Positions 17,635-64,000 of a DNA stretch of 64,000 nucleotides are shown piece by piece. The notes under the pieces are model-generated. The model saw nothing but the letters and a program-made list of their open reading frames with translations, was not told where the DNA came from and did not search any database. This stretch comes from an uncultured virus (IMG/VR IMGVR_UViG_3300009418_000017). Taxonomy: Duplodnaviria > Heunggongvirae > Uroviricota > Caudoviricetes. The DNA lies in IMG/VR virus record IMGVR_UViG_3300009418_000017, one strand, 5' to 3'. Within the stretch, counting starts at the first letter, position 1. Each line of letters begins with the position of its first letter. Position numbers and translations under genes: made by a program.

Positions 17635-18076
17635 TGAGTATGTAGGGGCTTTGCATAGTGGTGTGAACGTTTTTGCTTATTGAGAAGGCAACGGCCGATG
17701 TGTAAAGCTCCACAAAATCCTGCTCAGACGTTGCGGCATCCTGAATAAACCCGACTATCATCTGCGCGACATCAAAGCTATCCCCTGGGAAGTTCAAGCA
17801 CTCCCCTATTTTCTTGAACGTCAGCTCCGCATGAGGCCCCTCAAACTGATGAAACTCAGAATGAAAGCCGGTGGTCTTGACGTGCAGCTGATAGGACAGC
17901 TCATCTTTCTCGATACCGCTAGCTTTGTTCATTTCTTTTATGAGCGGCAGCATGACTAATGCAGCCCGGTCATTACCGCTGAACGGATAGTCCTTGCTCT
18001 TGCTAACATAGCTGTTCATAGCTGCTACGCCAATTGCCGATGGGTGTGTCATGTTGACGGCGACTTCTGGTGTCAT
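17618..18076 (-). CDS. Hypothetical protein
   Basis: 152-aa ORF with AGGAG RBS. Confidence 0.65.
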   Translation of the reverse strand: MTPEVAVNMTHPSAIGVAAMNSYVSKSKDYPFSGNDRAALVMLPLIKEMNKASGIEKDELSYQLHVKTTGFHSEFHQFEGPHAELTFKKIGECLNFPGDSFDVAQMIVGFIQDAATSEQDFVELYTSAVAFSISKNVHTTMQSPYILTSVAL

Positions 18077-18508
18077 TTCACAATTACTCCTTCTGTCCTG
18101 TTGAGGCGAACTATATAAGAACGAGTTTTCAAATAAAACCCCTTGTTTTTTCTTTTAGAGCTTCAAAACCACGAATTTGCGCATTTTGTTGATAGATAAC
18201 TGTCAATTTTCGGAATCTAAACCATTGATGGTAAAGGTGTTTTTAATTATTTCTGGAAAAGCGGCAATTTCTTGCCGAATGGGTATTTTTTAATCTGTTC
18301 GGGCTGTAACAAAATGTGACAGTGCGAATTTTTGTTATCCGTACACGCCTAACGTTTTAACAATTATGCTCTATAAGTATTACTCCTATCATATCTACGT
18401 CTGTCTATAGGGATGAGTTGCAGCGAATTATCACACGGTTATTACCTAACATTTGTATATTGTGCATTTCTTTGTTTTTTAAGCGTCTTTTGGTGATTTC
18501 GGGTTAAA

Positions 18509-18548
18509 ACTCACTTAAGTGAGTGTTTCGTTGTAGTCACTTAAGTGA
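18509..18548. promoter_or_regulatory. Tandem palindromes TCACTTAAGTGA
   Basis: ACTCACTTAAGTGAGT 18509-18524 and TCACTTAAGTGA 18537-18548. Confidence 0.6.
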
Positions 18549-18805
18549 TTAGCCTGTTCTATAAGGGTTTTGGCGATTGTCTAACAAGTGCATTCATTAA
18601 CTTTTCTTTTTTCTGACTTCGGCAATGGGTCAAGTAACGCTTCTCTGCAGCCCTTGTCAGTTCGTTCTGAGAGTCGGGTGGTCTGGTTCAAATTTATTGG
18701 TTAAGCGCCTTAAACTGGTGCAACCAGTTCTTTTCAAAACTTTACACTTTTGTGACTGCGGCCAATGCCACGAATTGACAGCCGGCTTTGAGCTTTTTGC
18801 TATAC

Positions 18806-18962
18806 GGGTATAAGAGTCGATAACCTGGTGAGGCGGAAATTTGCCTAATTCCGTCGACCGGGTGATTTGGCTTGCTGTTTTGATTTGGCTGCTCGGGGAA
18901 TTTTAGGCGTTTGGGTATAAGGGTGAGTTTTCTGGTAGGCGGAAATTTGGGTATAAGGGTGA
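18806..18962 (+). repeat. GGGTATAAG direct repeats
   Basis: TTTGGGTATAAGGGTGA at 18910 and 18946; GGGTATAAG at 18806; related copies at 24740 and 24838. Confidence 0.75.
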
Positions 18963-19065
18963 ATTTTTGATTGGCAGAAAATTTTGATTCCATCGGGGTC
19001 ACGGCAGCTGAAAATCTCTAGGACTTTCAGTACCCGATTAAACTCTAATCATTCAATCGTTTTAA

Positions 19066-19197
19066 TCAATTCAGCATCATAATGCTATTACAAACAACAA
19101 TCCCCGAAACGATCAAGCCGACAACGGATAATAAAGCGGCTTGTTTTAGTTGTTTATTGCGCTCTCTGCGCTTGATTCTCTTACTATAACGGCTCAT
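19066..19197 (-). CDS. Small membrane protein, 43 aa (not in ORF track)
   Basis: MSRYSKRIKRRERNKQLKQAALLSVVGLIVSGIVVCNSIMMLN; ATGA overlap with upstream ORF. Confidence 0.6.
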   Translation of the reverse strand: MSRYSKRIKRRERNKQLKQAALLSVVGLIVSGIVVCNSIMMLN

Positions 19198-19301
19198 AAA
19201 AACGCTCCCGATGACATATAAGCTAGAGTAAAAGCAAACGGAACACCGACAACAACGAATAAAACGAATTGAGCGGCTTTCTTAGCGGTTTCTTTAATCA
19301 T
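19194..19301 (-). CDS. Small membrane protein, 35 aa (not in ORF track)
   Basis: MIKETAKKAAQFVLFVVVGVPFAFTLAYMSSGAFL; GGAG RBS. Confidence 0.6.
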   Translation of the reverse strand: MIKETAKKAAQFVLFVVVGVPFAFTLAYMSSGAFL

Positions 19302-19320
19302 TGCGAACACTCCGACCGAT

Positions 19321-19350
19321 GAAAAGAAAGAGCGGCACAGAATGCCGCTC
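19321..19350 (-). terminator. Intrinsic terminator after 19359..20036
   Basis: GAGCGGCA-N5-TGCCGCTC followed by TTTCTTTTC on the minus strand. Confidence 0.65.
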
Positions 19351-19358
19351 TGTTGCTC

Positions 19359-20036
19359 TTACTTGATATTGAATGCGGCTTTAAGCGTATTAAGCTTTTT
19401 AGTGTCCGCTGTCTCAGTCTCTAAAATACCGCCCCGACCGATCCAGTTGCCGAGCCCGATAAAAGCAAGTGACTTTAAAAACTCACGGCTTTGTGTCGCT
19501 GTCTTGTTGTCAATATGCTTTTGCAGCTTATCGACCGTGATCGCTTTCTTGTCGAAATTCTCTAAACAAAAACGGATCGCTTTTTCAAAGTTCGACAATT
19601 GCGGGTTGTATGTTTGCCCGTTCGCTTGTCGGGTTGTGTTCGCTTGATGTTTCGCTTTTTTCAGTGCGTTTTCTACGGTTTCACCGTGAAGAATGAAACA
19701 TAAAGCGCTCATTTTTCCGTAGTTGTTGCGCTTTGCTTGCTCTGGATTTTTAGCGTGTTGTAATACGTCCGCTACTTTACCGGCAAAAGTGTAGTAGTTG
19801 TGTTGAGTAGCGGCTCGCTGTATAGCGTCAAAGTCGGCAGCGCTTTTGTCGGTTTCACTGATTTTTTGCGCTAGAGCTTCACGCTGCTTTGCTTGCTCTG
19901 TTGCAAACTCTGCAAAGCTCGGCTTTGTCTCTTCTGCTTTTTTCGCTGTCTGTTTGCGAGTAGCGGTTTTTTTCGCTGCTGCTTTTTTAGCGGTTTCTTT
20001 TGCTTGAGTTGCTTTAGTGTTTTTACGTTCTGACAT
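19359..20036 (-). CDS. Basic protein with Lys/Ala-rich N-terminal tail (putative immediate-early DNA-binding protein)
   Basis: KKAAAKKTATRKQTAKK; own promoter with operator at 20110-20129. Confidence 0.75.
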   Translation of the reverse strand: MSERKNTKATQAKETAKKAAAKKTATRKQTAKKAEETKPSFAEFATEQAKQREALAQKISETDKSAADFDAIQRAATQHNYYTFAGKVADVLQHAKNPEQAKRNNYGKMSALCFILHGETVENALKKAKHQANTTRQANGQTYNPQLSNFEKAIRFCLENFDKKAITVDKLQKHIDNKTATQSREFLKSLAFIGLGNWIGRGGILETETADTKKLNTLKAAFNIK

Positions 20037-20304
20037 AATAATTACTCTCTAAGTTTGATTGATTTTAAGCTGTATCGGCTCGGCTCTTTGTGCCGTGTCG
20101 ATGATTCTTATATTACAACGCTGAGATATTCGATCAAGTGCTTTTTATAGTTTTTTTTAATAAATTTGATTGTTTGATTACTTTTTAATCATTAGTATGT
20201 TTTTTAGTCATTCAGACAATAAATATAAAGTTTTTGATTTTTTTCTATTGTATTTCAGCTAAAGCCGTGATAGTAACGCACGCACGTTAAATAAAAGTGC
20301 GAAT

Positions 20305-20640
20305 CCTCGATGAGAACACTCCTTATCCTCAACCACAGCCGTCACTTCTCTATACAGAATTCCAAGGACAAGCCCTCTCCCCTATGCTAATACAGCCTTT
20401 CCCTAACCCTGGCACAGCTCTCCCTGGCCATTCCTGTTGTCACAGCGCCAAGGTAACCAAGGCTGTTTTCTACAAATCCAAGGAAGCTCAGGTTTGCCCA
20501 CGCTAACGCAGCCTTTCCCAAGTTTTACCAGGTCAGGCACTATATAGACCAAGGCAACCTTGGAGCCGGTGTGTGCTTACCAGTGGTCGGTCTATATCCC
20601 TACGCTAACGCAGCCATTCTTAAAATTTGAGAGGATTGCC
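20305..20640. repeat. Repeat block: CCAAGG-N3-CCTTGG palindromes and CCTAYGCTAACGCAGCC direct repeats
   Basis: CCAAGGCAACCTTGG 20549, variants 20448, 20478; direct repeats 20381, 20497, 20599. Confidence 0.8.
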
Positions 20641-20642
20641 TG

Positions 20643-20845
20643 AAAAGGCGTGGCCGGCCAATGATAACGAAGATAACCAAAAGGACCGGCCGGCCACGAT
20701 TGCCCGAAGGCAATTAGGGTTGGAGCGCTACTGAGTAAACTGAAGTAACAAAGAGAGAATGAAACCTCAGTAACGCCCCAAAAGTGGCGAGAAGGTGTAG
20801 ACTGGACAGTAGTGCAATGTGTGGGAAACTGTCTACACCTTCTCT
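20643..20845 (-). ncRNA. Putative structured RNA: tandem GC-rich stems with 25-30-nt loops
   Basis: IR pairs CGTGGCCGGCC/GGCCGGCCACG, GCGCTACTGAG/CTCAGTAACGC, AGAAGGTGTAGAC/GTCTACACCTTCT. Confidence 0.45.
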
Positions 20846-20861
20846 GAAAGAGTGACCACCA

Positions 20862-21110
20862 TCAGGCGGTCAAACGGGAATCTTGGGTAATTTTCAGCAA
20901 ACCCTCATCCCTTTCAGCAGCAAGCATGAAATCAATAGCTTCAACCAGGGCCATGCTGAAAGTAAAGTAATGCTGCTCAGTTACTTTACGCTCCTGGTTA
21001 AGCGACGTTCTTAGCCTGAATTTATCCCCGACCTGTTTGATATGAGCAACCGCCTTATCACTGATATGCAGTTGCTCGCTCTCATCGGGGGTCTGGTAGA
21101 CCCGCTTCAT
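20862..21110 (-). CDS. Hypothetical early protein
   Basis: 82 aa, coupled to upstream ORF. Confidence 0.65.
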   Translation of the reverse strand: MKRVYQTPDESEQLHISDKAVAHIKQVGDKFRLRTSLNQERKVTEQHYFTFSMALVEAIDFMLAAERDEGLLKITQDSRLTA

Positions 21111-21111
21111 A

Positions 21112-21429
21112 TTAAGCGACTCCGCTCACCACAGCCTGATAGCCTGTGAGCTTAGCGTTCTTTAAGCGCTCTTTTTGTGACACGAATGTACGGCTCTTAG
21201 TCAGCCCAAACAAACGTCTCTCACGCTCTGACAAGACACTGAACGGCTTAAGTCCTTCTTCTTGAAGAAACGCATAGCGTTGCTTATCCAACGTGAATGT
21301 CGCGCCATGCGAAAAGCCGTCTGACTTTAGTTGTTGTATCTGTTGAGCCGGTGTCATTGAAAGAAGAGCTTCCATGCTGACTGACAATTCCTTTTTGCTT
21401 TCACCGTTGCCAAAGATTGCTTGTTTCAT
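21112..21429 (-). CDS. Hypothetical early protein
   Basis: RBS, shared leader and operator (21505) upstream. Confidence 0.7.
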   Translation of the reverse strand: MKQAIFGNGESKKELSVSMEALLSMTPAQQIQQLKSDGFSHGATFTLDKQRYAFLQEEGLKPFSVLSERERRLFGLTKSRTFVSQKERLKNAKLTGYQAVVSGVA

Positions 21430-21552
21430 TGTAAAATTCCTTCTGTTGCTTGCTTGTTTGCTGAATGTTGTTGAGCGATTTGCTGTCTCGCTTCAACGGT
21501 TTCTATATTACAGTGCTGAGATAGGGGAGCAAGCGAAGTTAAGAACTTAAAT

Positions 21553-21665
21553 CCCTACGCTTTCTAGCTCTACTCCAAGGACGCCTTGGTTTATACAGAA
21601 CCAGTGGACGACAGGCATTCCTACGCTAACGCAGCCAGTCCTAAAACCTGCCTTGGCAACCTTGA
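21553..21665. repeat. Second CCAAGG/CCTACGCT repeat block
   Basis: CCAAGGACGCCTTGG 21575-21589; CCTACGCTAACGCAGCC 21620-21636. Confidence 0.8.
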
Positions 21666-21734
21666 ACCGGGTGAGAAACAAAAAAGGGCGACCGAAGCCG
21701 CCCAAACTTGCAGTGACAAGTTAAAAGACTCTGA

Positions 21735-21983
21735 TTAACGCTCGACCTCTGCGTAAACGTCCGAATCAACGTCCTGGCCAATTTCTTTCACAATATCGGT
21801 AGGAATAGGCATCAGAAACTGAATTTTTCGTGAAATTCCGTCTTCAAACAAAACGTTTAAATGCTCTCCACCAACATATTTAATCTCCACCGGCTCCTGA
21901 GTAAACTGCTCTAACATTCGTCCGTCCACCAGATACGGTGTGGTGGTTTTCTTCATCACGTTTTTAAGGTGTTGTAGTTTCAT
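21735..21983 (-). CDS. Hypothetical protein
   Basis: GAGG RBS; terminator hairpin at ~21680-21703 downstream. Confidence 0.65.
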   Translation of the reverse strand: MKLQHLKNVMKKTTTPYLVDGRMLEQFTQEPVEIKYVGGEHLNVLFEDGISRKIQFLMPIPTDIVKEIGQDVDSDVYAEVER

Positions 21984-21990
21984 TCTTACC

Positions 21991-22323
21991 TCACAGTGTT
22001 ATTTCTAAAAGTTCAAATTCGAAGCTGTTGGGTGAAATGTGGTATTCAAAACCGAAGCTATCATCCAGTGCGTTTATCTCTAATGGCTTGAACACCTCCA
22101 AAGCGTTACGAGAAAACATTGCCTTGATGTAACCCTTAAGCGTCAGCCCTGCGTCACCCGCTTCTTCACGCCAGTCTTTCTCCAGGTTTGGAGTGTGCTT
22201 CATAAGCCTTACCATAAGCTCGGGCAACGTATCTCTGTCATCGAGATCGGCAGAAAAGGTGTGCTTGTTCTCCGCATTTTCAATGTCTATCAAAACCAGC
22301 GTCTGTTGTGATTTAAGGTTCAT
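21991..22323 (-). CDS. Hypothetical protein
   Basis: Shared leader and operator (22358) upstream. Confidence 0.7.
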   Translation of the reverse strand: MNLKSQQTLVLIDIENAENKHTFSADLDDRDTLPELMVRLMKHTPNLEKDWREEAGDAGLTLKGYIKAMFSRNALEVFKPLEINALDDSFGFEYHISPNSFEFELLEITL

Positions 22324-22509
22324 TACTCGTTCTCTCTTGCTTGCTGAATGTGAGTGTATATTACAACACTGAAATAGGCACTCAACAGCTTATCATAAAC
22401 TATTTACCTCACAGCCGGCTTGGAATAGGAATAATTGTTTAGTCATTCGCTTGAACGCCTTTGTGTCAGTGTCATAATACACACTCATTCATAAAGAGAG
22501 AGAAAAACA

Positions 22510-22761
22510 ATGTCTGAAAAAGAGCCGAATTTCCTACGTGAAATCATGCAAGTGTTTATCCCGTCTACTCACAAATTTTATGAATTGAACGAGTTTGAGG
22601 ACGGGAGCTTTAAAATTACTGAGCAAACGATTGATGAAAAAATTGTAACAATTGAAGAAGCCGACCTTGTTGACTTCTACGGCGGCAAAACAATCAACTC
22701 TTACGAGAGTAAAGAAGAAGCTGTTGAGCAATTTAAGGAGCTGACATTCTCACAAATCTAA
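22510..22761 (+). CDS. Acidic hypothetical protein, stand-alone moron-like unit
   Basis: Promoter TTGAAC(22451)-N16-CATAAT with TGn extension; terminator GCGGCC-TTCG-GGCCGT-TTCTTTTTT. Confidence 0.7.
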   Translation: MSEKEPNFLREIMQVFIPSTHKFYELNEFEDGSFKITEQTIDEKIVTIEEADLVDFYGGKTINSYESKEEAVEQFKELTFSQI

Positions 22762-22857
22762 GCAAGCGGCCTTCGGGCCGTTTCTTTTTTGTCAGCCGGC
22801 ACCAAGGAAGCCTTGGTATGAGTGGATTAAACAAAAAAGCGGCCGAAGCCGCCTTTC

Positions 22858-23079
22858 TCAGTCCGTTAATACATAGCAGTGCCAATAATCTCTCAAACTC
22901 ACCTCTGCAATGCTCTGATAACTTCTCATCATGGAAAAGTAATCATCCAGGTTATAAATAACGGCTTCAGGATGCTCAACCTCAACCGGCTCTTGGGTTA
23001 AGAAACTGGTTCCATCAAGCTCTTCTGCCTGTTCAAGCGTGTATTCGCTCTTAGGGAGTAATACAATTGTTGTTGCCAT
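22858..23079 (-). CDS. Hypothetical protein
   Basis: Last gene of a coupled operon; terminator 22833-22851. Confidence 0.6.
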   Translation of the reverse strand: MATTIVLLPKSEYTLEQAEELDGTSFLTQEPVEVEHPEAVIYNLDDYFSMMRSYQSIAEVSLRDYWHCYVLTD

Positions 23080-23081
23080 AA

Positions 23082-23333
23082 CTAATCCTTACCGATATTG
23101 ACGTAAGTGACCCAAACCGTATCCAGGTCAATCGCCTCATCGTTACAGTCGTCCATAAACTGCGACAGAGTCATCACCTGAATATCGCAACACAGCGTAT
23201 TACCTTCTTTGTTCACCGTCTCAGCAACCGCCTGAATGCTCTCAAACGGTCTGTCCTGGATTAGTTCGGCCACAGCCCGACCATCATTCACCCGAGCGGT
23301 TGGAATCAGTACTATATGCTTCTCAGACATCAC
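23082..23333 (-). CDS. Hypothetical protein, probable paralog of 22858..23079
   Basis: Both have N-terminal IVL(L/I)P and C-terminal W..YV. Confidence 0.6.
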   Translation of the reverse strand: MMSEKHIVLIPTARVNDGRAVAELIQDRPFESIQAVAETVNKEGNTLCCDIQVMTLSQFMDDCNDEAIDLDTVWVTYVNIGKD

Positions 23334-23592
23334 GCTTCTCCTCTCTGGCCTTCACCCAACCGTAATGGTCGGCTATCGCCCTTAAAATGTTCAAAATCTC
23401 TTCTTCGCCTTTGAAAAATCCAAAGATCGAATTGCCATGCTTAGATTGAATGTACCCCTCTAAAGCATTCACCCGATAAAAGCTGCCCTCCGGGTATTCC
23501 TCAGACAAAAACCGCCAAAAATCTGTCTCTACCATCGGAATGTTAGACGGATTGCCAGCCTTCATTTCTTCAAGAATTTTCTCTCTGTCCAT
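23323..23592 (-). CDS. Hypothetical protein
   Basis: Tightly packed operon ORF. Confidence 0.6.
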   Translation of the reverse strand: MDREKILEEMKAGNPSNIPMVETDFWRFLSEEYPEGSFYRVNALEGYIQSKHGNSIFGFFKGEEEILNILRAIADHYGWVKAREEKRDV

Positions 23593-23595
23593 AGC

Positions 23596-23838
23596 CTACA
23601 CCGCTGATAGTTCGTAAATAACATGACCCTCACGCTCAGCCCAATCGACTAAGTGACGAGTCACCTCTGTCCAGTTCTTAGGAGCCGGTTTATCGCTTGG
23701 CCAACCGTCTCCTGCCCAAATCTCTTCCAGCTCTTCACCGTTATTCCAGTCACCGGCGATGAGAACGTTCGAGCTCTCATCCCAGTCACCAAAACAACTG
23801 ATCCGGTGGCCACGATAGGTAATGACTGTTTTACTCAT
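23596..23838 (-). CDS. Hypothetical Trp-rich protein
   Basis: ATGA-coupled, GGAGG RBS. Confidence 0.6.
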   Translation of the reverse strand: MSKTVITYRGHRISCFGDWDESSNVLIAGDWNNGEELEEIWAGDGWPSDKPAPKNWTEVTRHLVDWAEREGHVIYELSAV

Positions 23839-24101
23839 GACGCCTCCGGATCGAAGTTAATGAACAGGTCGGCCACACTCTCGATAGCCACCCACATTTC
23901 ATCAACGGTAAAGTCCTGGTAAGACTCAGCCGGTACCAAGTCACCGAAGTCGTTTGAACCATCGGGCATTTCATAAAGGGTCTTCAATGCCTGGTCAGCG
24001 GTTACCTCGTGCTCGGCAGGATTGTCACTGTCAGACACATTGTTGAAGAATAAAAGGAGTGAGCGCTTGTTGTAGGCTTCACGTATTTCATTGGCTGTCA
24101 T
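23835..24101 (-). CDS. Hypothetical protein (start revised to MTANE)
   Basis: GGAG RBS, shared leader and operator (24137) lie inside the longer called ORF. Confidence 0.65.
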   Translation of the reverse strand: MTANEIREAYNKRSLLLFFNNVSDSDNPAEHEVTADQALKTLYEMPDGSNDFGDLVPAESYQDFTVDEMWVAIESVADLFINFDPEAS

Positions 24102-24269
24102 AATAGACTCCACTTGCTGTTGCTGAATGTGCTTATATATTACATTGCTGAGATAGGCACGCAATAGCGACCGTTTATTCATATTCCTGCATAACTATCC
24201 ACTATTTAAAACAAACCCTCGGGGATTTTTCTCGAAAACTGCATACCTACCCACACAAAGTGAATAAAA

Positions 24270-24590
24270 CCCAAGGATTCCACGCATAAATACCCTATAC
24301 AAACCCAAACCAACCAAGGACGCCTTGGATTAAACCCGACCTGCAGGTAACAGCCGGCCAAGGACTCTACATTCCTATGCTTTCATAGCCTTTCCCAAAT
24401 TCTGACAGCCAAGGCTCTCTACAAACCTATGCTAACGCAACCAGTCCTGAATTCTGCTATAACTCCCTCACTCAATGTCGTTCCAAGAGCTTCACAGGCA
24501 CGAGAACACGTCTAAAAGGGAAAACCTAAGCAACCATACCACCCAAGGGCTTACAATCGCTTACAGAGCGTGTCAGGCTTCCTTGGTTCA
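24270..24590. repeat. Third CCAAGG/CCTATGCT repeat block
   Basis: CCAAGGACGCCTTGG 24314-24328; CCTATGCT.. 24374, 24426; several CCAAGG half-sites. Confidence 0.75.
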
Positions 24591-24661
24591 ATCCCACAAG
24601 GGCTGGCAGTTATGTTTATCACCGACTGTTGCTCACCACCGGCTGCGTGTTACTATAAACA

Positions 24662-24737
24662 CCGTCATGAAGAGCTGATTACTCTTTTTGATTATTTTAA
24701 GCTGTATTAGCCCTGGCCTCACGGTCGGGGCTTTTTT
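24662..24737 (+). ncRNA. Putative trans-antisense sRNA against the leader of gene 19359..20036
   Basis: Promoter TTGCTC(24629)-N16-TACTAT with TGn; terminator AGCCCTGGCC-TCAC-GGTCGGGGCT-TTTTT; body 24678-24707 matches 20041-20075. Confidence 0.65.
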
Positions 24738-24889
24738 ATGGGTATAAGAAAAGACAGTTGGTAAATTTTTTTTGGAAATTTTGCGAGCGCCTGGTTTCCG
24801 GCTGTTTGTGCGTGTCCTGACTGGCCTGGGATTTTTTGGGTATAAAAGTTTGAGGGTCGCGCCCAATTTTTTTGTGAGGGAGCGCGTTC

Positions 24890-25520
24890 AACTAAACTCG
24901 TGCCTACTCCAATCACTCACTATCTGCCTACTCTCTCAATCTCCTCTCTATACACTCGTGCCTACTCACATCATTCTCAATCGCCTACTTTCTCATTCAA
25001 CAATCAATACACTCCTATTCTACCTACTCACGCTCTCTCCCTTCATTCTCCCAATGTACACGTTATGCCTAATCACTCTCTCTATACACGTAAGCTCTCT
25101 TCTCTCCATAAGCATGAGCTCTCCCTGTACCTGTGTGAACGTTTGTTCTTCTCCGTGTGTTTCTTTGTTTTGTTTTATCGTTAGCTCCTTTACTCCTTAT
25201 GATTGTTTGTTCATCCCTCCTAATGTTCGTTGTCCGTGTGAAATGTTTTTACTTTTATCGTTAGTTCCTGTCGGTCAGAACCGTTCTCCGGCTGTTACCT
25301 TTGATTGTTTTGTATTATTGATAGCCGAGAGTTTTTGAAATTGTTTGAGGCATTTGTGTTTTGTGTAGCCTGGGTGTTTGTTGGACTTGTTTTGTGAACG
25401 GGTTATTCCTGTGTTTTGTATAGTGAGCCGGGTGTTTGCTTGTGTTTGTGAAGGGAATGCTGTGCTGAGCTTATGAGACGCTTATTTGCTTGGTTTTGTT
25501 TTGTGTTGTGAGTCAGAATG
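24890..25520. other. Strand-skewed non-coding region, candidate replication origin
   Basis: G-poor tract with GCCTACT repeats (24902, 24926, 24960, 24983) switching to a T/G-rich tract. Confidence 0.5.
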
Positions 25521-25559
25521 AGAAAAGCCGACTCTAGGCCGGCTCTGTTAGGCTCTCAA

Positions 25560-25766
25560 TCATTCAAAGTCTCCCTCGAAAATAGCTCTTTTGTTGACTC
25601 TGTCCGTGACAATGTCTACTCCGCCTGTGCTATACGGGTCGGCCTTGCATTTTTTGAAATATGATACTGCCTTCTTCTTGTCGGTCGTTCGACCGGCGTA
25701 AGTGCCTTGACCTCTTCCATCGGCGCTTGAGCCGTCATAGAGTAGGTGCCAGGTTTCTTCAATCAT
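25560..25766 (-). CDS. Hypothetical protein
   Basis: Coupled operon end; hairpin 25526-25544 downstream. Confidence 0.6.
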   Translation of the reverse strand: MIEETWHLLYDGSSADGRGQGTYAGRTTDKKKAVSYFKKCKADPYSTGGVDIVTDRVNKRAIFEGDFE

Positions 25767-25971
25767 TGTGCACCTCTAAAGCTTTCACTCTTTGACGTAG
25801 AGAGTTCACCTCTTTTAGTGCTTCATCACGCTCTTTCTCAAGCTTTGCCCTAAGCTCTTTGCAAAAATGAACGTGGCTGGCGTACTTGATGTACTTGCCT
25901 TGTTTGTGAATCTCCATAGACTCACCGTCAAAGCCTCTGATATCTCTCGATGTACAGTTAAAACGTTTCAT
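25759..25971 (-). CDS. Hypothetical protein
   Basis: Operon ORF with C-terminal coiled coil. Confidence 0.55.
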   Translation of the reverse strand: MKRFNCTSRDIRGFDGESMEIHKQGKYIKYASHVHFCKELRAKLEKERDEALKEVNSLRQRVKALEVHND

Positions 25972-25983
25972 TGCCTATTCAAC

Positions 25984-26592
25984 TCACTGTCTAAAAAAGT
26001 TCACCGGATGGATCTGGTAAACGCCGCCAAACTTTTTCATGAACTCAATGGCGTCATCTTCGCAGAGAAAAGTCTCCATGACGTTACCCATATAGGTAAC
26101 TTCATAGTAATGTTTTTGGTTGCGTAACTGCTCTAACTTATCTGACAACTCTTGAGTCTGTTCGGTGGAGGCGATTGTCTCACCCTTCTTTGAGAAGTTG
26201 TCTTTGAAGTATTCAGCGGCAACTAGCCACTGGTCTTCATGGTTTTTTGGATTGCGAGCGATCATGTCTCCGATTTTAGGAGAGCCCTTCAACTTGTCTT
26301 CGCTCGATATGCTGATATTGGCAGCAAGCGTCTCGCCAGGCACGTAAGGTCGCATTTCGGCCACGTTTGTTCGGGTGTATTGTTCAAACTTACTTTCGAG
26401 AAGAACCCCTGCGTCGATTAACTTTTGATGCGCCATTCTCTCGGACTGATCAACTCGACCGGCCTCCAACTGTCTCAAAGCGTCTTCTGGCGATTCTGGC
26501 TCCGAATAGGCGCCGTCTTTTGAGCTCATTACGCTCTTGGCGAATTCAAACGCCTCTTCCAACGTTGTATCTTTCCCTTCCATATCTATCAC
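25984..26592 (-). CDS. Mosaic phage hypothetical protein
   Basis: Central AEMRPYVPGE...GSPKIGDMIARNPKNHEDQWLVAAEYF domain typical of phage accessory proteins. Confidence 0.65.
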   Translation of the reverse strand: MIDMEGKDTTLEEAFEFAKSVMSSKDGAYSEPESPEDALRQLEAGRVDQSERMAHQKLIDAGVLLESKFEQYTRTNVAEMRPYVPGETLAANISISSEDKLKGSPKIGDMIARNPKNHEDQWLVAAEYFKDNFSKKGETIASTEQTQELSDKLEQLRNQKHYYEVTYMGNVMETFLCEDDAIEFMKKFGGVYQIHPVNFFRQ

Positions 26593-45182: not shown

Positions 45183-45282
45183 GATACACCTCTTGCTTTT
45201 GCTGAATGTTTGTATTTCGATGCTGATATACTAAACGATCCGAGTAGGCAATCAAGCGGTTTTTGATTTTGTTTTTTCCAAT

Positions 45283-45372
45283 AAAAAACCGCCTTCCCAA
45301 GCAAAAGAAAGGCGGTCTACATTCAGCAATAGCAAGCAAGGTTTTACAAGAAGTGCAAAATCACGCTTACTT
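45283..45372 (-). ncRNA. Putative multi-target antisense sRNA complementary to the shared early-gene leader/RBS
   Basis: Promoter TTGTCG(45406-45401)-N17-TGTAAT(45383-45378) with TGn; body ACCUUGCUUGCUAUUGCUGAAUGUA; terminator ACCGCCUU...AAGGCGGU-UUUUU. Confidence 0.72.
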
Positions 45373-45435: not shown

Positions 45436-45876
45436 CTATTCCTTCTTAGCCTTTCGCTCTTTGTAAGACCGATAAAGCTCTTTTGCCTTTTCCGTTCCGC
45501 CCTGAAGCAATGGCTTGCTAAAGTAAAAAGGAACAATCCAGACCAGAATCGAGTTAATGTTTTTATCCACGATCTCCTGCAAGTCCTTCACAAAGTCAGC
45601 GTCAAATACAGCACCACCGGCTAAGAACAATACACAGACCAACCAAGCAAAAATCACAGCCACTACAATCGCTCGCCTTGAGACGTTCTGCCCCTCAGTG
45701 TTCTTCATGTACTTACCCAGGCTGTCGATAAACTGCCGGTTCGCCTCTACCCGCTCTTGATCGCCAAAATGAAGCTTGTCCATTCCTGATGAAACAGTGT
45801 CAAAGACGCCCTTCGTTGACTCAGGTGTTCCGAACATAGTACCGAATACGTGTTTAATGCCATTCCACAAACTCAT
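45436..45876 (-). CDS. Membrane protein, holin-like
   Basis: Amphipathic N-terminus, SRRAIVV followed by hydrophobic segments. Confidence 0.5.
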   Translation of the reverse strand: MSLWNGIKHVFGTMFGTPESTKGVFDTVSSGMDKLHFGDQERVEANRQFIDSLGKYMKNTEGQNVSRRAIVVAVIFAWLVCVLFLAGGAVFDADFVKDLQEIVDKNINSILVWIVPFYFSKPLLQGGTEKAKELYRSYKERKAKKE

Positions 45877-60466: not shown

Positions 60467-61474
60467 CTAGATATTTTCCTTAAGATGCTTGATGACATCG
60501 CCGGTTAGGTCGTTGTCGTCAATATGCTTAATCAACGTTGCGCGAGGGTAAGTTTTCCCGTCAATAAACTTGATTCGATTACCGGCTCTCTCCAGAAAAC
60601 CGTTCTCCTTCATGTAATCGACAAGCGCCCCGGTTGTGTCGATACGACCGATTGACTTCTGACCGGCTCCGCTGCGCTCATACGCAATGTTCCACTTAAC
60701 TTTTTCACCGACCGACTGCGTCACTTTGTTCTTAATGATTTTCGCCGTGATTTCATGCTCATGCACGCGACCCTCTTCCGACTTCACCTTCTTGCCGAGA
60801 GAGATACGCACTGAAGCGTAAAACTTAAGCGCTTTACCGCCAGGTGTCGTCTCAGGATTGCCGAACATAACGCCTGGCTTTTCACGGATCTGGTTGAGGT
60901 AAATCATCACCACATCCATGTCATCGACGAACAGGTTTACCGCTTTCAACGTCGAACTGGTTACTCGAGCCAGTGCCGTTGTGTCGTTCATGTTGTATTC
61001 GCTGATGCCCTTTTCTGCAACAGATTTTGGTACTGCAGCTGCCACCGAATCCTGAACAATAACGATTGGCTTGTCAGCAAACTCTTTTGAGTTTCGAATT
61101 GCTTCAGCAACTTCTAACGCCTTTGTATTGCCTTCTTCCCAAGTAACCGGCTTGATATACATAAAGTGTGGTCGTTTTGTATTCAGACCTAAGTCTTCAG
61201 CGAAGTCTTTCTTGAAAGACCGCTCGTAATCCACAAAGATTCCGACACCACCGGCTTTCTGAGCGGCAATCATGGCCATTGTCGCCATTGCTGTCTTACC
61301 TGATGACTCAGGGCCGTAGATTTCATAAATGCGGCCGGTGGCAAATCCACCATCCGGGTTGCCGCTCAACACAATGTCCAACGGCAAAAGCGATGAACTC
61401 ATAAAGTGATTTTCTTCTTCAAGCCACTCTTCGTCACCTAAAAGACCGGCTAACTCTTTATCTAAACTTGCCAT
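60467..61474 (-). CDS. recA: RecA/UvsX-like recombinase
   Basis: GRIYEIYGPESSGKT, DSVAA, NQIREKPGVMFGNPETTPGGKALKFYASVRI. Confidence 0.95.
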   Translation of the reverse strand: MASLDKELAGLLGDEEWLEEENHFMSSSLLPLDIVLSGNPDGGFATGRIYEIYGPESSGKTAMATMAMIAAQKAGGVGIFVDYERSFKKDFAEDLGLNTKRPHFMYIKPVTWEEGNTKALEVAEAIRNSKEFADKPIVIVQDSVAAAVPKSVAEKGISEYNMNDTTALARVTSSTLKAVNLFVDDMDVVMIYLNQIREKPGVMFGNPETTPGGKALKFYASVRISLGKKVKSEEGRVHEHEITAKIIKNKVTQSVGEKVKWNIAYERSGAGQKSIGRIDTTGALVDYMKENGFLERAGNRIKFIDGKTYPRATLIKHIDDNDLTGDVIKHLKENI

Positions 61475-61486
61475 GCTGAATGCTCC

Positions 61487-62413
61487 TTATGCGAATAGAC
61501 GTTCAACGGTGTCTATTTGATTCGCCAAACTGATGAAATTGTTGTCCTCGAAAAACACCAAAGTTTCTTCTTTACTGAACTTAGGCTTTTCCATCTTGAG
61601 GCCGCTTGGTTTTGGCGACTTGCTCATATCCATAAGCGCTATGTTCCGCTTAAGGATCTCCAGACCGCCATTTTCGTTGCTACAAAAAGCGTTAATCTTC
61701 TTGCGAGCCCGAGTAAGCTCTTTGGGCAAGTCTTCTTTTTCAAACTCACCATTTGCCCGATAAGCTTTAATCAATTCAGCTATGCTTCCGAAATGATTAA
61801 TAACTCGCTGAGCTGTTAGCTCTCCCAGGCCACCAACGCCGGGTATGCAGTCTGAGTTGTCACCTTGCAAATACTTAGATTCGAGAAATTGCTTGGTTGT
61901 TTTAAACCCTGTCTTTTTCTCGAAACCATGAGTATCAACTACCTCATCGTTATGTAGGTTGTACCAGTGAACGAACGGGTTAACCAATTGCAGCCAGTCC
62001 TTGTCACCAGTCACAAGCAAAACACGCTTGCCGTTGTCCGATAACTTTTTGCTTATCCAATAAGCCAGGTCATCAGCTTCTAAACCTTCATAGCTCAATT
62101 GCTGAATGCCCATCTTTTCGAGCGCTTCTTTGATCAGGGGTCGCTGCTTGCGGTATTCTTCCCGCTCAGCCGCCACTTTCGGATTGTCGTCACGCTTTGA
62201 TTTGTACTCAGGGTATATGTCAAAGCGGAACTGACAGTGCTCGTCCCACAGACAGATAATTCGAGCGTCAGGGTTTAAGCGCTTAAACTTGATCATCTGC
62301 TTGATACTTTGAAACACGGCTTGAGTTTGGTTACCGTCTCCGTCGTTAAGCTTGCGAGTGCTATTCGACTGATAACCCACCGCATTCATATCAACCAAAA
62401 TTACGTTATACAT
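61487..62413 (-). CDS. 5'-3' exonuclease / flap endonuclease
   Basis: YPEYKSKR, EADD, TGDKDWLQL, GDNSDCIPGVGGLG. Confidence 0.93.
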   Translation of the reverse strand: MYNVILVDMNAVGYQSNSTRKLNDGDGNQTQAVFQSIKQMIKFKRLNPDARIICLWDEHCQFRFDIYPEYKSKRDDNPKVAAEREEYRKQRPLIKEALEKMGIQQLSYEGLEADDLAYWISKKLSDNGKRVLLVTGDKDWLQLVNPFVHWYNLHNDEVVDTHGFEKKTGFKTTKQFLESKYLQGDNSDCIPGVGGLGELTAQRVINHFGSIAELIKAYRANGEFEKEDLPKELTRARKKINAFCSNENGGLEILKRNIALMDMSKSPKPSGLKMEKPKFSKEETLVFFEDNNFISLANQIDTVERLFA

Positions 62414-62476
62414 GGTGTGAATCTCCAGTGAAGAGAAAGGGGGCTAACGCCCCCTTTTAAAGTTACCGAGTGAACC

Positions 62477-63559
62477 TTACAGGTCGCCCAAGATGTCGTC
62501 TAAGTCATCGTCGCTTGAAGACTCAGCTACCGGCGCGTCTCCGCCTACAACTTGCTTTTCTTCAGAAGCCTTTTTCTCAGCTTCAGCTTTGGCTTTGGCT
62601 TCTTCTTCAGCTTTCGCCTTAGCTTCCGCTTCTTTGCGCTGTTCAGCTTCACGCTTAGCCTTAGCTTCTTCTTCGGCCTTAGCCTTTTCTTCGGCTTCCT
62701 GGTCGTCAGATTCAGACTCAACAACCTTCTCTTCTGAAGCTTCTGCTTCAGGCTCGTCAGCCGGCTCGTACTCAGCATCTTCAATGCTTTCGTCCAACAT
62801 ATTGTCGAGTTCACGGCGCTCACTGGCTTTGTTCTCAAGAGCTCGACCACCATCAGCAACTTCGATGCCGACAATAGAGCCAACAGTAGCGATTGCCTTA
62901 TTGACTCGCTCCTGCTCCCAGTTCTGAGCTTTAATCCACTTGTCGATGTCCTTGCGAGCTTCTAACTGCTCTTTAGTCACGTCTTTAACGTTATTCTTAG
63001 GCGATGTCGGCATGACTGTATATTTACGGTCAAAACCCGAGCCTGTTGCGTTAACAGTGATATCAAGGCCGTCTTCCGTTGCAATGATTTGCTCACCGTA
63101 CTCTTCAAACAGACTGATAATGTCGTTTTCAAACAGTGAACGTGGAATGTCGATCACTTCAACGCTATCATCTGAGCGCTTGTCACCACGCACAACAACG
63201 TTTAGCAAAATACGATTACCGGCGTTCGCTTTCTTAAGCGCTTTAACGCTGTCATCACTGTCATTGATTTCACCCATAGACTCGCGAACATAGCCAAACG
63301 CATCGCCAATAGCGTTACAGGTCGGACACTCTTCGTCGTAAGTTGCGCGAGGGCATACATGAACACCTTTCAAGTCGCCTTTTGCATCTTTTACAAAGTG
63401 CATACCAAAATCGTGAAAAAAGGTGTCGTCGTCTTCGCGCCAACCCGGTAGGATGCGCAACTGCGTTTTGCCTTCTTTCAGTTTATAAGCACTATCGTTA
63501 CCTAGTTTGCGTTCTTCAGCTTGTTCTTTGCGTTTCTTGATGATGTCGTTTAGTTTCAT
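62477..63559 (-). CDS. Single-stranded DNA-binding protein, T4 gp32-like
   Basis: LRILP, H..C..CPTC zinc site, EAK-rich linker, acidic tail DDDLDDILGDL. Confidence 0.8.
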   Translation of the reverse strand: MKLNDIIKKRKEQAEERKLGNDSAYKLKEGKTQLRILPGWREDDDTFFHDFGMHFVKDAKGDLKGVHVCPRATYDEECPTCNAIGDAFGYVRESMGEINDSDDSVKALKKANAGNRILLNVVVRGDKRSDDSVEVIDIPRSLFENDIISLFEEYGEQIIATEDGLDITVNATGSGFDRKYTVMPTSPKNNVKDVTKEQLEARKDIDKWIKAQNWEQERVNKAIATVGSIVGIEVADGGRALENKASERRELDNMLDESIEDAEYEPADEPEAEASEEKVVESESDDQEAEEKAKAEEEAKAKREAEQRKEAEAKAKAEEEAKAKAEAEKKASEEKQVVGGDAPVAESSSDDDLDDILGDL

Positions 63560-63568
63560 GATGTTTCC

Positions 63569-64000
63569 TTAGCCTTCTACATTCATGCCAGTTGCTTTTT
63601 GAATTCGTGATGCCGCAGCCCCACGGTCCTTTTTTGGAGCTGAGTGATAGCCTTCCAATGAAAGCTGTTCAGACTCCCTTTTGGCCAATTGCGAAATCAT
63701 TCGCGAACGTTGGTCAAACGCTTCGTTCATGCTCTTGCAAATGCCCAAAACTTCTTTCGCATCGATGACTAGGTCTTCCACCTTTCTCATCAATGGGTGT
63801 GTCTCAACTTCGGCGGCGATTGCCGGTTCAGTCTTCTTGTCTCCGCTATCGAGTGCTTGCTTGCGCACTTCTTTAGCAAGAGACGACCGAACTATTTCAG
63901 CCGCACGTTTGAGACGCTCATGTTGCTTCTGAGCTTGGCTGTGAGCGACACCGGCTAGAAAGGCCAGTGACGGCTGACCTCTCATTTCTTCATCCAGTCT
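63569..64000 (-). CDS. UvsY-like helical recombination mediator (may start beyond window)
   Basis: KKTEPAIAAEV...EAFDQRSRMI; upstream of the SSB gene. Confidence 0.5.
   Translation of the reverse strand, partial: RLDEEMRGQPSLAFLAGVAHSQAQKQHERLKRAAEIVRSSLAKEVRKQALDSGDKKTEPAIAAEVETHPLMRKVEDLVIDAKEVLGICKSMNEAFDQRSRMISQLAKRESEQLSLEGYHSAPKKDRGAAASRIQKATGMNVEG

Follow-up and report, generated by a model that had tools for sequence, protein, structure and literature searches.

A candidate small RNA (sRNA) gene lies on the plus strand at 24629-24738, inside a 1.3-kb stretch that is free of genes and rich in repeats. Positions are those of the window, that is, the whole 64-kb stretch of phage DNA that was analysed. 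The unit is composed of the following features.

24629-24634, plus strand: TTGCTC, the -35 element of the candidate promoter for the sRNA, identical to the -35 element of the family promoter P21532
24648-24656, plus strand: extended -10 element, TGT followed by TACTAT (24651-24656), with a 16-nt spacer from the -35 element
24663-24738, plus strand: predicted sRNA of about 75 nt, its 5' end placed at 24661-24664 from the -10 element and its 3' end within the T-run
24664-24692, plus strand: 5' stem-loop, with the ATTACTCT and TTTGATT blocks in its loop and 3' arm
24693-24708, plus strand: unpaired seed UAUUUUAAGCUGUAUU, containing the exact 14-mer 24694-24707 described below
24709-24738, plus strand: intrinsic terminator with a 10-bp stem (seven G-C and two G-U pairs), a 4-nt loop and a UUUUUUAU tail

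The window is contained in a virus record of 101,852 bp (G001), which is rated complete. About 3.2 kb at the 3' end of the window (about 60820-64000) maps to the start of this record. This means that the phage genome is circularly permuted or terminally redundant. The 101,852-bp contig was found among marine metagenomes as the sole match in a JGI metagenome scan, and the five sequencing runs listed for 19300-25600 are all marine DNA metagenomes. The GC content is approximately 45%, and the minus strand carries nearly all of the genes. ARAGORN found no tRNA, nor any tRNA or tRNA-like element upstream of the sRNA unit. The whole window gave no match to Rfam release 15 at the gathering score. In searches of 19000-25500/25600 against GenBank phages (megablast and blastn) and plasmids, no DNA match was obtained. 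The closest NrdA, which is about 51% identical, comes from 112-kb Pseudomonas phages. The phage is large, uncultured and poorly related.

The promoter, a body of roughly 75 nt with no meaningful ORF, and the terminator had all been proposed in a first-pass annotation, and each of them can be read in the sequence: TTGCTC, the 16-nt spacer ending in TGT, TACTAT, and the body and terminator behind them. The pattern TTG-N16-TGnTAnnAT occurs twice among the 128,000 window positions of both strands, where 0.49 matches are expected, and one of the two is the sRNA promoter. In its geometry it matches a large promoter family of the phage. When it is aligned with six members of this family, the invariant C..TTG is conserved, and the sRNA promoter has the TTGCTC -35 element and the ACCGT after the -10 element in common with P21532. 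When a position weight matrix (PWM) was built from 13 family promoters, with the sRNA promoter left out, the latter ranked 27th of about 203,600 genome positions with a score of 8.8 (mean -30.6, sd 9.4), which is below every clear family member and amid matches of unknown value. The hexamers TTGCTC and TACTAT are imperfect, the spacer does not carry the GCCTnTnT motif of the family, and the promoter was absent from the list given by a generic promoter scan. The candidate promoter is plausibly a real one, though it is not established as such.

The predicted 76-nt sRNA folds at -27.0 kcal/mol, compared with -14.7 ± 2.8 kcal/mol for shuffled sequences (z -4.45), and none of 200 shuffles was as stable; the opposite strand folds at -18.7 kcal/mol. 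The order of the fold is a 5' hairpin, 16 unpaired nucleotides and the terminator. The stem-loop of the terminator (24709-24732) is followed by TTTTTTAT, and it ranks first among 29 terminator-like sites in a scan of 17-30 kb. The terminator hairpin is strand specific: its energy is -18.7 kcal/mol on the plus strand (z -5.2) versus -11.6 kcal/mol on the minus strand, where the two G-U pairs of the stem become C-A mismatches, and the T-run after the hairpin is present on the plus strand only. In the 429 nt upstream of the unit (24200-24628), neither strand folded better than expected (z -1.3 and -0.3).

The unit does not contain a credible ORF. Seven start variants of the five ORFs of at least 30 aa that overlap the unit were all absent from a collection of 15 billion proteins, and so was the 188-aa ORF adjoining it. 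When 18000-26000 was compared with Rfam at E values up to 5, the only match on the unit was Acido-Lenti-1, which covered the terminator part alone at 18.7 bits against a gathering score of 37.

Several other elements surround the unit. About 650 nt at 24870-25520 are gene-free and strand-asymmetric, the minus strand being A/C-rich and then G/A-rich. GCCTACT repeats occur there at 24902, 24926, 24960 and 24983, and in a relative that is about 96-97% identical, 127 nt (24969-25097) are swapped for 40 other letters. This region looks like a replication origin. The motif GGGTATAAG is found in four copies where 0.18 are expected, at 18806, 18913, 18949 and 24740, all on the plus strand and each after a T run. 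The copy at 24740 lies directly behind the sRNA terminator, and a variant is found at about 24839. These copies could be iterons or an unusual type of plus-strand promoter. The hexamers CCAAGG and CCTTGG are also clustered: 18 of the 21 in the window fall into four short intergenic patches of the early region, and the last patch ends approximately 45 nt upstream of the sRNA promoter.

20362-20558, 21575-21651, 22802-22811 and 24271-24581: patches of CCAAGG/CCTTGG hexamers
20549, 21575, 22802 and 24314: four perfect CCAAGG-N3-CCTTGG palindromes

The patches look like operators for a dimeric DNA-binding protein. It should be mentioned that the block of early genes on the minus strand also contains a plus-strand gene (22510-22761, 83 aa), which diverges from the promoter 22385. 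Within the region 22451-22793, this gene is bounded by a family-type promoter at 22451-22478 and a separate terminator at 22764-22783; in other words, plus-strand units do occur in the minus-strand block.

The body of the sRNA resembles the leader of a gene located to the left, the features of which are as follows.

19359-20036, minus strand: target gene, encoding a 225-aa protein (P0001) with a basic disordered tail, a helical middle and a winged-helix-like C-terminus
20110-20137, minus strand: target gene promoter, TTGATC...TATCTCAGC...TGTAATAT, with two mismatches to the family pattern
20039-20076, minus strand: predicted target site, within the 5' UTR of this mRNA, from -40 to -3 relative to the AUG, covering the Shine-Dalgarno sequence (SD)

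The start codon of this gene is at 20036-20034 and its SD at 20049-20045. The promoter belongs to a group with the TATCTCAGC spacer, which has four matches in the window where none is expected. On the plus strand, an extended -10-like TGACATAAT, read by eye, overlaps the start codon. Behind the gene, in the minus-strand region 19066-19351, a two-way hairpin (19329-19351) is followed by a small hydrophobic-looking ORF of 43 aa (19066-19197), whose only Pfam match is weak and below the cut-off.

The first-pass annotation had aligned 24678-24707 with 20041-20075, including an exact 14/14 block, and had placed the match in the 5' UTR and SD of the minus-strand gene 19359-20036. Both statements hold. 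The two segments, read on the same strand, share 30 identities in 35 columns, with five gap columns. The exact 14-mer (24694-24707 and 20062-20075) has no further copy on either strand of the window, and it falls in the sole unpaired stretch of the sRNA. The local alignment of 24655-24712 with the rest of the window (both strands) scored 41, and dinucleotide shuffles gave best scores with a mean of 25.4 (sd 2.0, largest 33); 0 of 150 reached 41. Judged from these alignment scores, the repeat between 24.7 kb and 20 kb is a true homology. The 20-kb copy sits between the promoter (20137-20110) and the start codon, and spans the purine-rich SD. As the leader of a minus-strand gene has been copied on the same strand, a plus-strand RNA from 24.7 kb would be complementary to the mRNA of this gene. 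A distance of 4.6 kb, occupied by about ten ORFs, separates the unit from the target start at 20036.

The centroid fold predicted for the leader has a small 5' hairpin and, behind it, an open stretch that leaves the target site single-stranded. At the target locus (20031-20110), too, the hairpin is more stable on the plus strand, at -16.5 versus -9.4 kcal/mol, so that composition may account for part of the strand bias. A cis-antisense RNA on the plus strand of the target locus (20031-20110) may also explain this bias of the hairpin.

Co-folding of the sRNA with the 20036 leader gave blocks of 15, 7 and 11 bp with a ddG of -23.6 kcal/mol. Two 3-bp contacts were added in the first codons of the target, and the terminator of the sRNA stayed folded. 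The 14-bp seed duplex on its own amounts to -15.2 kcal/mol. The target ranked first among 440 start regions (-60 to +30 of the ORFs of at least 50 aa in the whole 101,852-bp genome), with a ddG of -27.8 kcal/mol compared with -16.3 for the next region (mean -4.3, sd 2.5 kcal/mol). A sliding duplex scan of 13,574 windows led to the same site: outside the sRNA's own locus, the 20036 leader was best, at -40.2 versus -34.5. On these energy models, the sRNA has one outstanding predicted target within the phage genome, namely the 20036 leader.

About 20-25 other messages of the phage share a leader tag. This tag, ACATTCAGCAA, has 21 matches with at most one mismatch in the window, where 1.95 are expected; they extend from 21458 to 62109, mostly on the minus strand, and a looser pattern has 25 matches genome-wide. 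Most copies are preceded by TTG, 16 nt with GCCTnTnT, and an extended -10 element (TGTCAnAAT or TGTAATAT); they lie about 7 nt past this conserved promoter, ahead of AGCAAGG and ATG. None of the 21 matches falls within 20037-20103, so the gene at 20036 is without the common leader, as had been annotated.

A second candidate RNA is found on the minus strand at about 45345-45290 (region 45270-45345), just downstream of the gene 45436-45876. It reads ACCTTGCTTGCTATTGCTGAATGT, the exact complement of the shared leader including the SD, and a hairpin and TTTTTTATT come directly after. The candidate RNAs at 24.7 and 45.3 kb are thus of the same build, an antisense leader copy abutting a terminator, and this recurrence makes the sRNA reading of the 24.7-kb unit more credible. 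That the 20036 gene is tag-less and that an anti-tag RNA is present at 45.3 kb also fits the idea, put forward in the first-pass annotation, of a dedicated RNA.

The only relative that could be aligned over the locus is a contig of 95,322 nt, which is the one about 96-97% identical mentioned above and which spans 18000-25766. In the target site, the changes listed include CT inserted behind 20044; this insertion is neutral, as it only enlarges the unpaired bulge that separates two of the blocks. The same relative carries an 87-nt duplication of the target promoter region (20108-20194), with 410 extra letters between the copies, and other cassette-scale changes. The duplication indicates that promoter cassettes are shuffled in this phage lineage. 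The 95,322-nt contig encodes the homologue P0002, and more distant relatives are known as proteins alone: P0003 (73% identity, from a contig of 90,671 nt) and P0004 (58%, from a contig of 2,102 nt). Two distant runs, X4 and X5, gave no coverage of 24629-24738. When IMG/VR was scanned for the 14-mer (118 loci) and for a pattern of 16 bases (12 loci), chance matches alone were returned, and the longest extended match, 22 nt, was at an unrelated locus.

The product of the target gene, P0001, is hydrophilic, and its N-terminal tail is Lys/Ala-rich and disordered (residues 1-37, pLDDT under 50). The AlphaFold model, made with a four-sequence alignment, has a mean pLDDT of 70 and a pTM of 0.60. The disordered tail is followed by helices and by a C-terminal unit of the order helix-strand-helix-helix-strand-strand. 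There was no PHROG match and no Pfam match over the cut-off. Foldseek against the PDB at E values up to 0.001 returned nothing for the model, and the Atlas structure matches all had scores under 0.9 and TM values under 0.5. In VIA-align, the best 50 rows all covered residues ~142-225 with Z of 6.0-7.5. They were mostly winged-helix DNA-binding regulators (BrxR, ArsR/SmtB, MarR and SarA types), and other rows were winged-helix domains of ribosomal-protein, SelB and cohesin. These Z values are under the caution line of the tool (Z 8), so that the winged-helix assignment is a lead rather than a finding. P0001 is a probable nucleic-acid-binding protein, and the nucleic acid is probably DNA. Homologues are rare: three were found in 5.8 billion clusters and four hits among 1.84 billion representatives. 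IMG/VR contained no relative of P0001 or of the neighbouring 228-aa protein, and none was found in 185,579 prokaryote genomes.

These properties bear on the suggestion, made in the first-pass annotation, that the RNA silences a toxic or lysis-committing product with a logic like that of a type I antitoxin. In type I toxin-antitoxin systems, a hydrophobic or membrane peptide, mostly shorter than 60 aa, acts as the toxin, its mRNA is stable while the antitoxin RNA is labile, and the RNA gene overlaps the toxin gene or lies beside it. P0001 is a hydrophilic protein of 225 aa, and the two genes are 4.6 kb apart. Nothing marks P0001 as a toxin, and this part of the suggestion is not supported. The other part, a separate trans-encoded antisense RNA against the 20036 leader, came out positive in all of the in-silico tests that were run: the promoter geometry, the strand-specific terminator, the exposed seed and the unique best target.

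On balance, 24629-24738 on the plus strand is probably a dedicated trans-encoded translational silencer of one early gene, that at 20036, although our confidence in this is modest. The anatomy, statistics, folds and target uniqueness were computed directly; that the RNA is made, that it pairs in vivo and represses its target, and what the protein does, we infer. A host polymerase of the sigma-70 type would transcribe the sRNA from a diverged member of the phage promoter family, and the strong intrinsic terminator would end the transcript. The unpaired 16-nt stretch beside the terminator might then nucleate a duplex with the 5' UTR of the 19359-20036 mRNA. This duplex could extend into the 5' hairpin until three blocks, about 33 bp in all, cover -40 to -3 of the leader, counted from the AUG. 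As a result, the Shine-Dalgarno sequence would be buried and initiation blocked, and the target mRNA would probably be open to decay. Because the 20036 leader does not have the tag common to about 20-25 messages, it would need a dedicated RNA, and not the general anti-leader RNA of 45.3 kb. The sRNA gene itself seems to have been born by a copy of leader DNA in a lineage that shuffles promoter and leader cassettes. The target product would probably be a DNA-binding protein whose amount or timing is critical.

The same shuffling offers another account, which we regard as unlikely: the leader repeat would be a relic of recombination between promoter/leader cassettes without a regulatory role, the likeness of the promoter would be fortuitous, and the hairpin would be a plus-strand terminator or insulator shielding the repeat-rich, origin-like region to the right. 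The copy and the original leader have the same orientation, the 96%-identical relative has the 87-nt duplication of the 20036 promoter region with its 410 extra letters, the unit lies in the gene-free, repeat-rich stretch of 1.3 kb, and the PWM score of the promoter is in a grey zone; all of these would agree with such an origin. However, neutral debris is not expected to retain an exact 14-mer just where a strongly non-random fold has its single unpaired stretch, nor to provide a promoter of family geometry with correct spacing and strand, and the same architecture recurs at about 45.3 kb. The RNA might also be real and have its main job elsewhere, with the match to the 20036 leader being secondary. 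It could act in cis against minus-strand read-through across 24740-24660, in replication at the iteron-like region, or on a host mRNA; a role in replication was reportedly once proposed for lambda OOP. The unit indeed abuts a strand-asymmetric region with GCCTACT repeats and GGGTATAAG motifs. The target ranking covers the phage genome alone. In addition, the minus-strand hairpin is weaker and has no T-run, and leftward transcripts would therefore pass through it and be fully complementary to the sRNA. Against this, the 45 best PWM hits include no minus-strand family promoter in 24740-24900, the stretch downstream as far as the promoter 24164 has no credible minus-strand gene, and the 20036 leader is an outlier among the 440 start regions. 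A main job elsewhere appears improbable.

It is very improbable that the functional strand is the minus strand, on which the hairpin, leader and SD would form a module heading a mini-ORF or a non-coding RNA. Both copies do read, on that strand, from the hairpin through ATACAGCTTAAAAT..AGAGTAAT to an ATG. However, there is no promoter upstream, the purine block is 13 nt from the ATG (24670-24668), and the ORF has just 11 codons, as counted by eye. The hairpin with its two C-A mismatches (-11.6 versus -18.7 kcal/mol) comes after an A-run and not before a T-run, and the overlapping ORFs are all absent from the protein collection.

The predicted silencer can be compared with known antisense regulators. 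The c4 RNA of P1/P7 (immI) represses icd/ant (PMC8198154), and it is a 77-nt RNA acting in trans (PMC12197685). The predicted sRNA is like c4 in its size (about 77 nt), in that its gene does not lie across from its target site, and in that it would pair with the leader of the phage's own mRNA for a regulator and block translation. It is also like c4 in that the complementary segments are copies of each other within the phage genome. The c4 RNA is excised from the operon transcript that it represses, and two short loops pair with two sites just downstream. In contrast, the predicted sRNA has its own promoter, on the opposite strand and 4.6 kb away, and would form one near-continuous interaction of 33 bp. 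It is not processed from the transcript of its target: the unit is on the opposite strand with its own promoter and terminator. C4 is an Rfam family, and no C4 match was found over the unit in Rfam, either in the window at the gathering score or in 18000-26000 at E values up to 5. With no Rfam match, a promoter of its own and a location on the other strand, the predicted sRNA is not a member of the c4 family.

PMC12197685 also gives the lengths of P22 sar (68/69 nt) and lambda OOP (77 nt). The predicted sRNA is similar to both in size, in having its own promoter and an intrinsic terminator, and in the antisense control of a phage regulator (ant and cII, respectively). The sar RNA covers the ant RBS, as is predicted for the 24.7-kb sRNA at its own target, and OOP adjoins an origin, as the 24.7-kb unit adjoins an iteron-like region. 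Both sar and OOP are transcribed opposite their targets, overlapping them, and are fully complementary to them. Unlike them, the 24.7-kb RNA gene has a locus apart from its target and is a copy that has diverged from it (30 of 35 columns identical). The overlap with the target that marks cis-encoded antisense RNAs is absent, the complementary site being at 20039-20076.

DicF is given in PMC12197685 as a trans-encoded base-pairing sRNA of a prophage. The predicted RNA shares with trans-encoded prophage sRNAs the 5' hairpin, the single-stranded A/U-rich seed before a rho-independent terminator with a U-tail, and the pairing at the RBS. An unstructured U-rich stretch followed by a terminator with a U-tail is the Hfq-binding module. 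In silico, the unit has the own promoter and rho-independent terminator around a non-coding body that are typical of trans-encoded sRNAs, and an exposed seed complementary to the initiation region of its target (rank 1 of 440). Prophage sRNAs have mostly host targets and short imperfect seeds, whereas the 24.7-kb sRNA would have a phage target, a perfect core of 14 bp and 33 bp in total. RNA-OUT of IS10 is complementary over about 35 nt to a single mRNA, RNA-IN, at its 5' end and RBS. Pairing starts from the exposed part of this small stable RNA, and action in trans on other copies is possible; one element encodes both RNAs, on opposite strands. In contrast to this pair, the loci of the 24.7-kb sRNA and its target do not overlap. 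By analogy, the control of the dosage or timing of a regulator, as in c4/ant, sar/ant and OOP/cII, would be a better comparison for the unit than a type I antitoxin.

Taken jointly, the two candidate RNAs allow a broader reading, which is possible but doubtful: the early programme might be timed largely by RNA in two tiers. A master anti-leader RNA at 45.3 kb would mirror the tag of about 20-25 messages, and the dedicated 24.7-kb RNA would cover the tag-less gene of the winged-helix-like protein. Both RNA genes would have arisen through cassette shuffling, by copying of the leader and placement of a terminator behind the antisense strand. In the same joint reading, the silenced P0001 may itself read the CCAAGG-N3-CCTTGG palindromes by the early and sRNA promoters, and the circuit would then be a feedback loop.

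The antisense RNAs known to regulate phage genes from within the phage (c4, sar and OOP) belong to a small number of temperate model phages, and are encoded opposite or next to their targets. Among the literature listings searched and the two papers cited above, no description was found of an RNA of a lytic or marine phage made from a distant leader copy, which is not proof of absence. If the proposed silencing is true, what would be new is that a large, uncultured phage of marine origin has a trans-acting RNA copied from a single leader in addition to a general anti-leader RNA. P0001, an orphan DNA-binding protein, would be singled out as dosage-critical. RNA control of a phage's own translation would then be more widespread than thought, and such RNAs would evolve by a simple route, in which a leader is copied and a terminator is acquired on the other strand. 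This route would also be a rule by which such genes could be found in metagenomic phage genomes.
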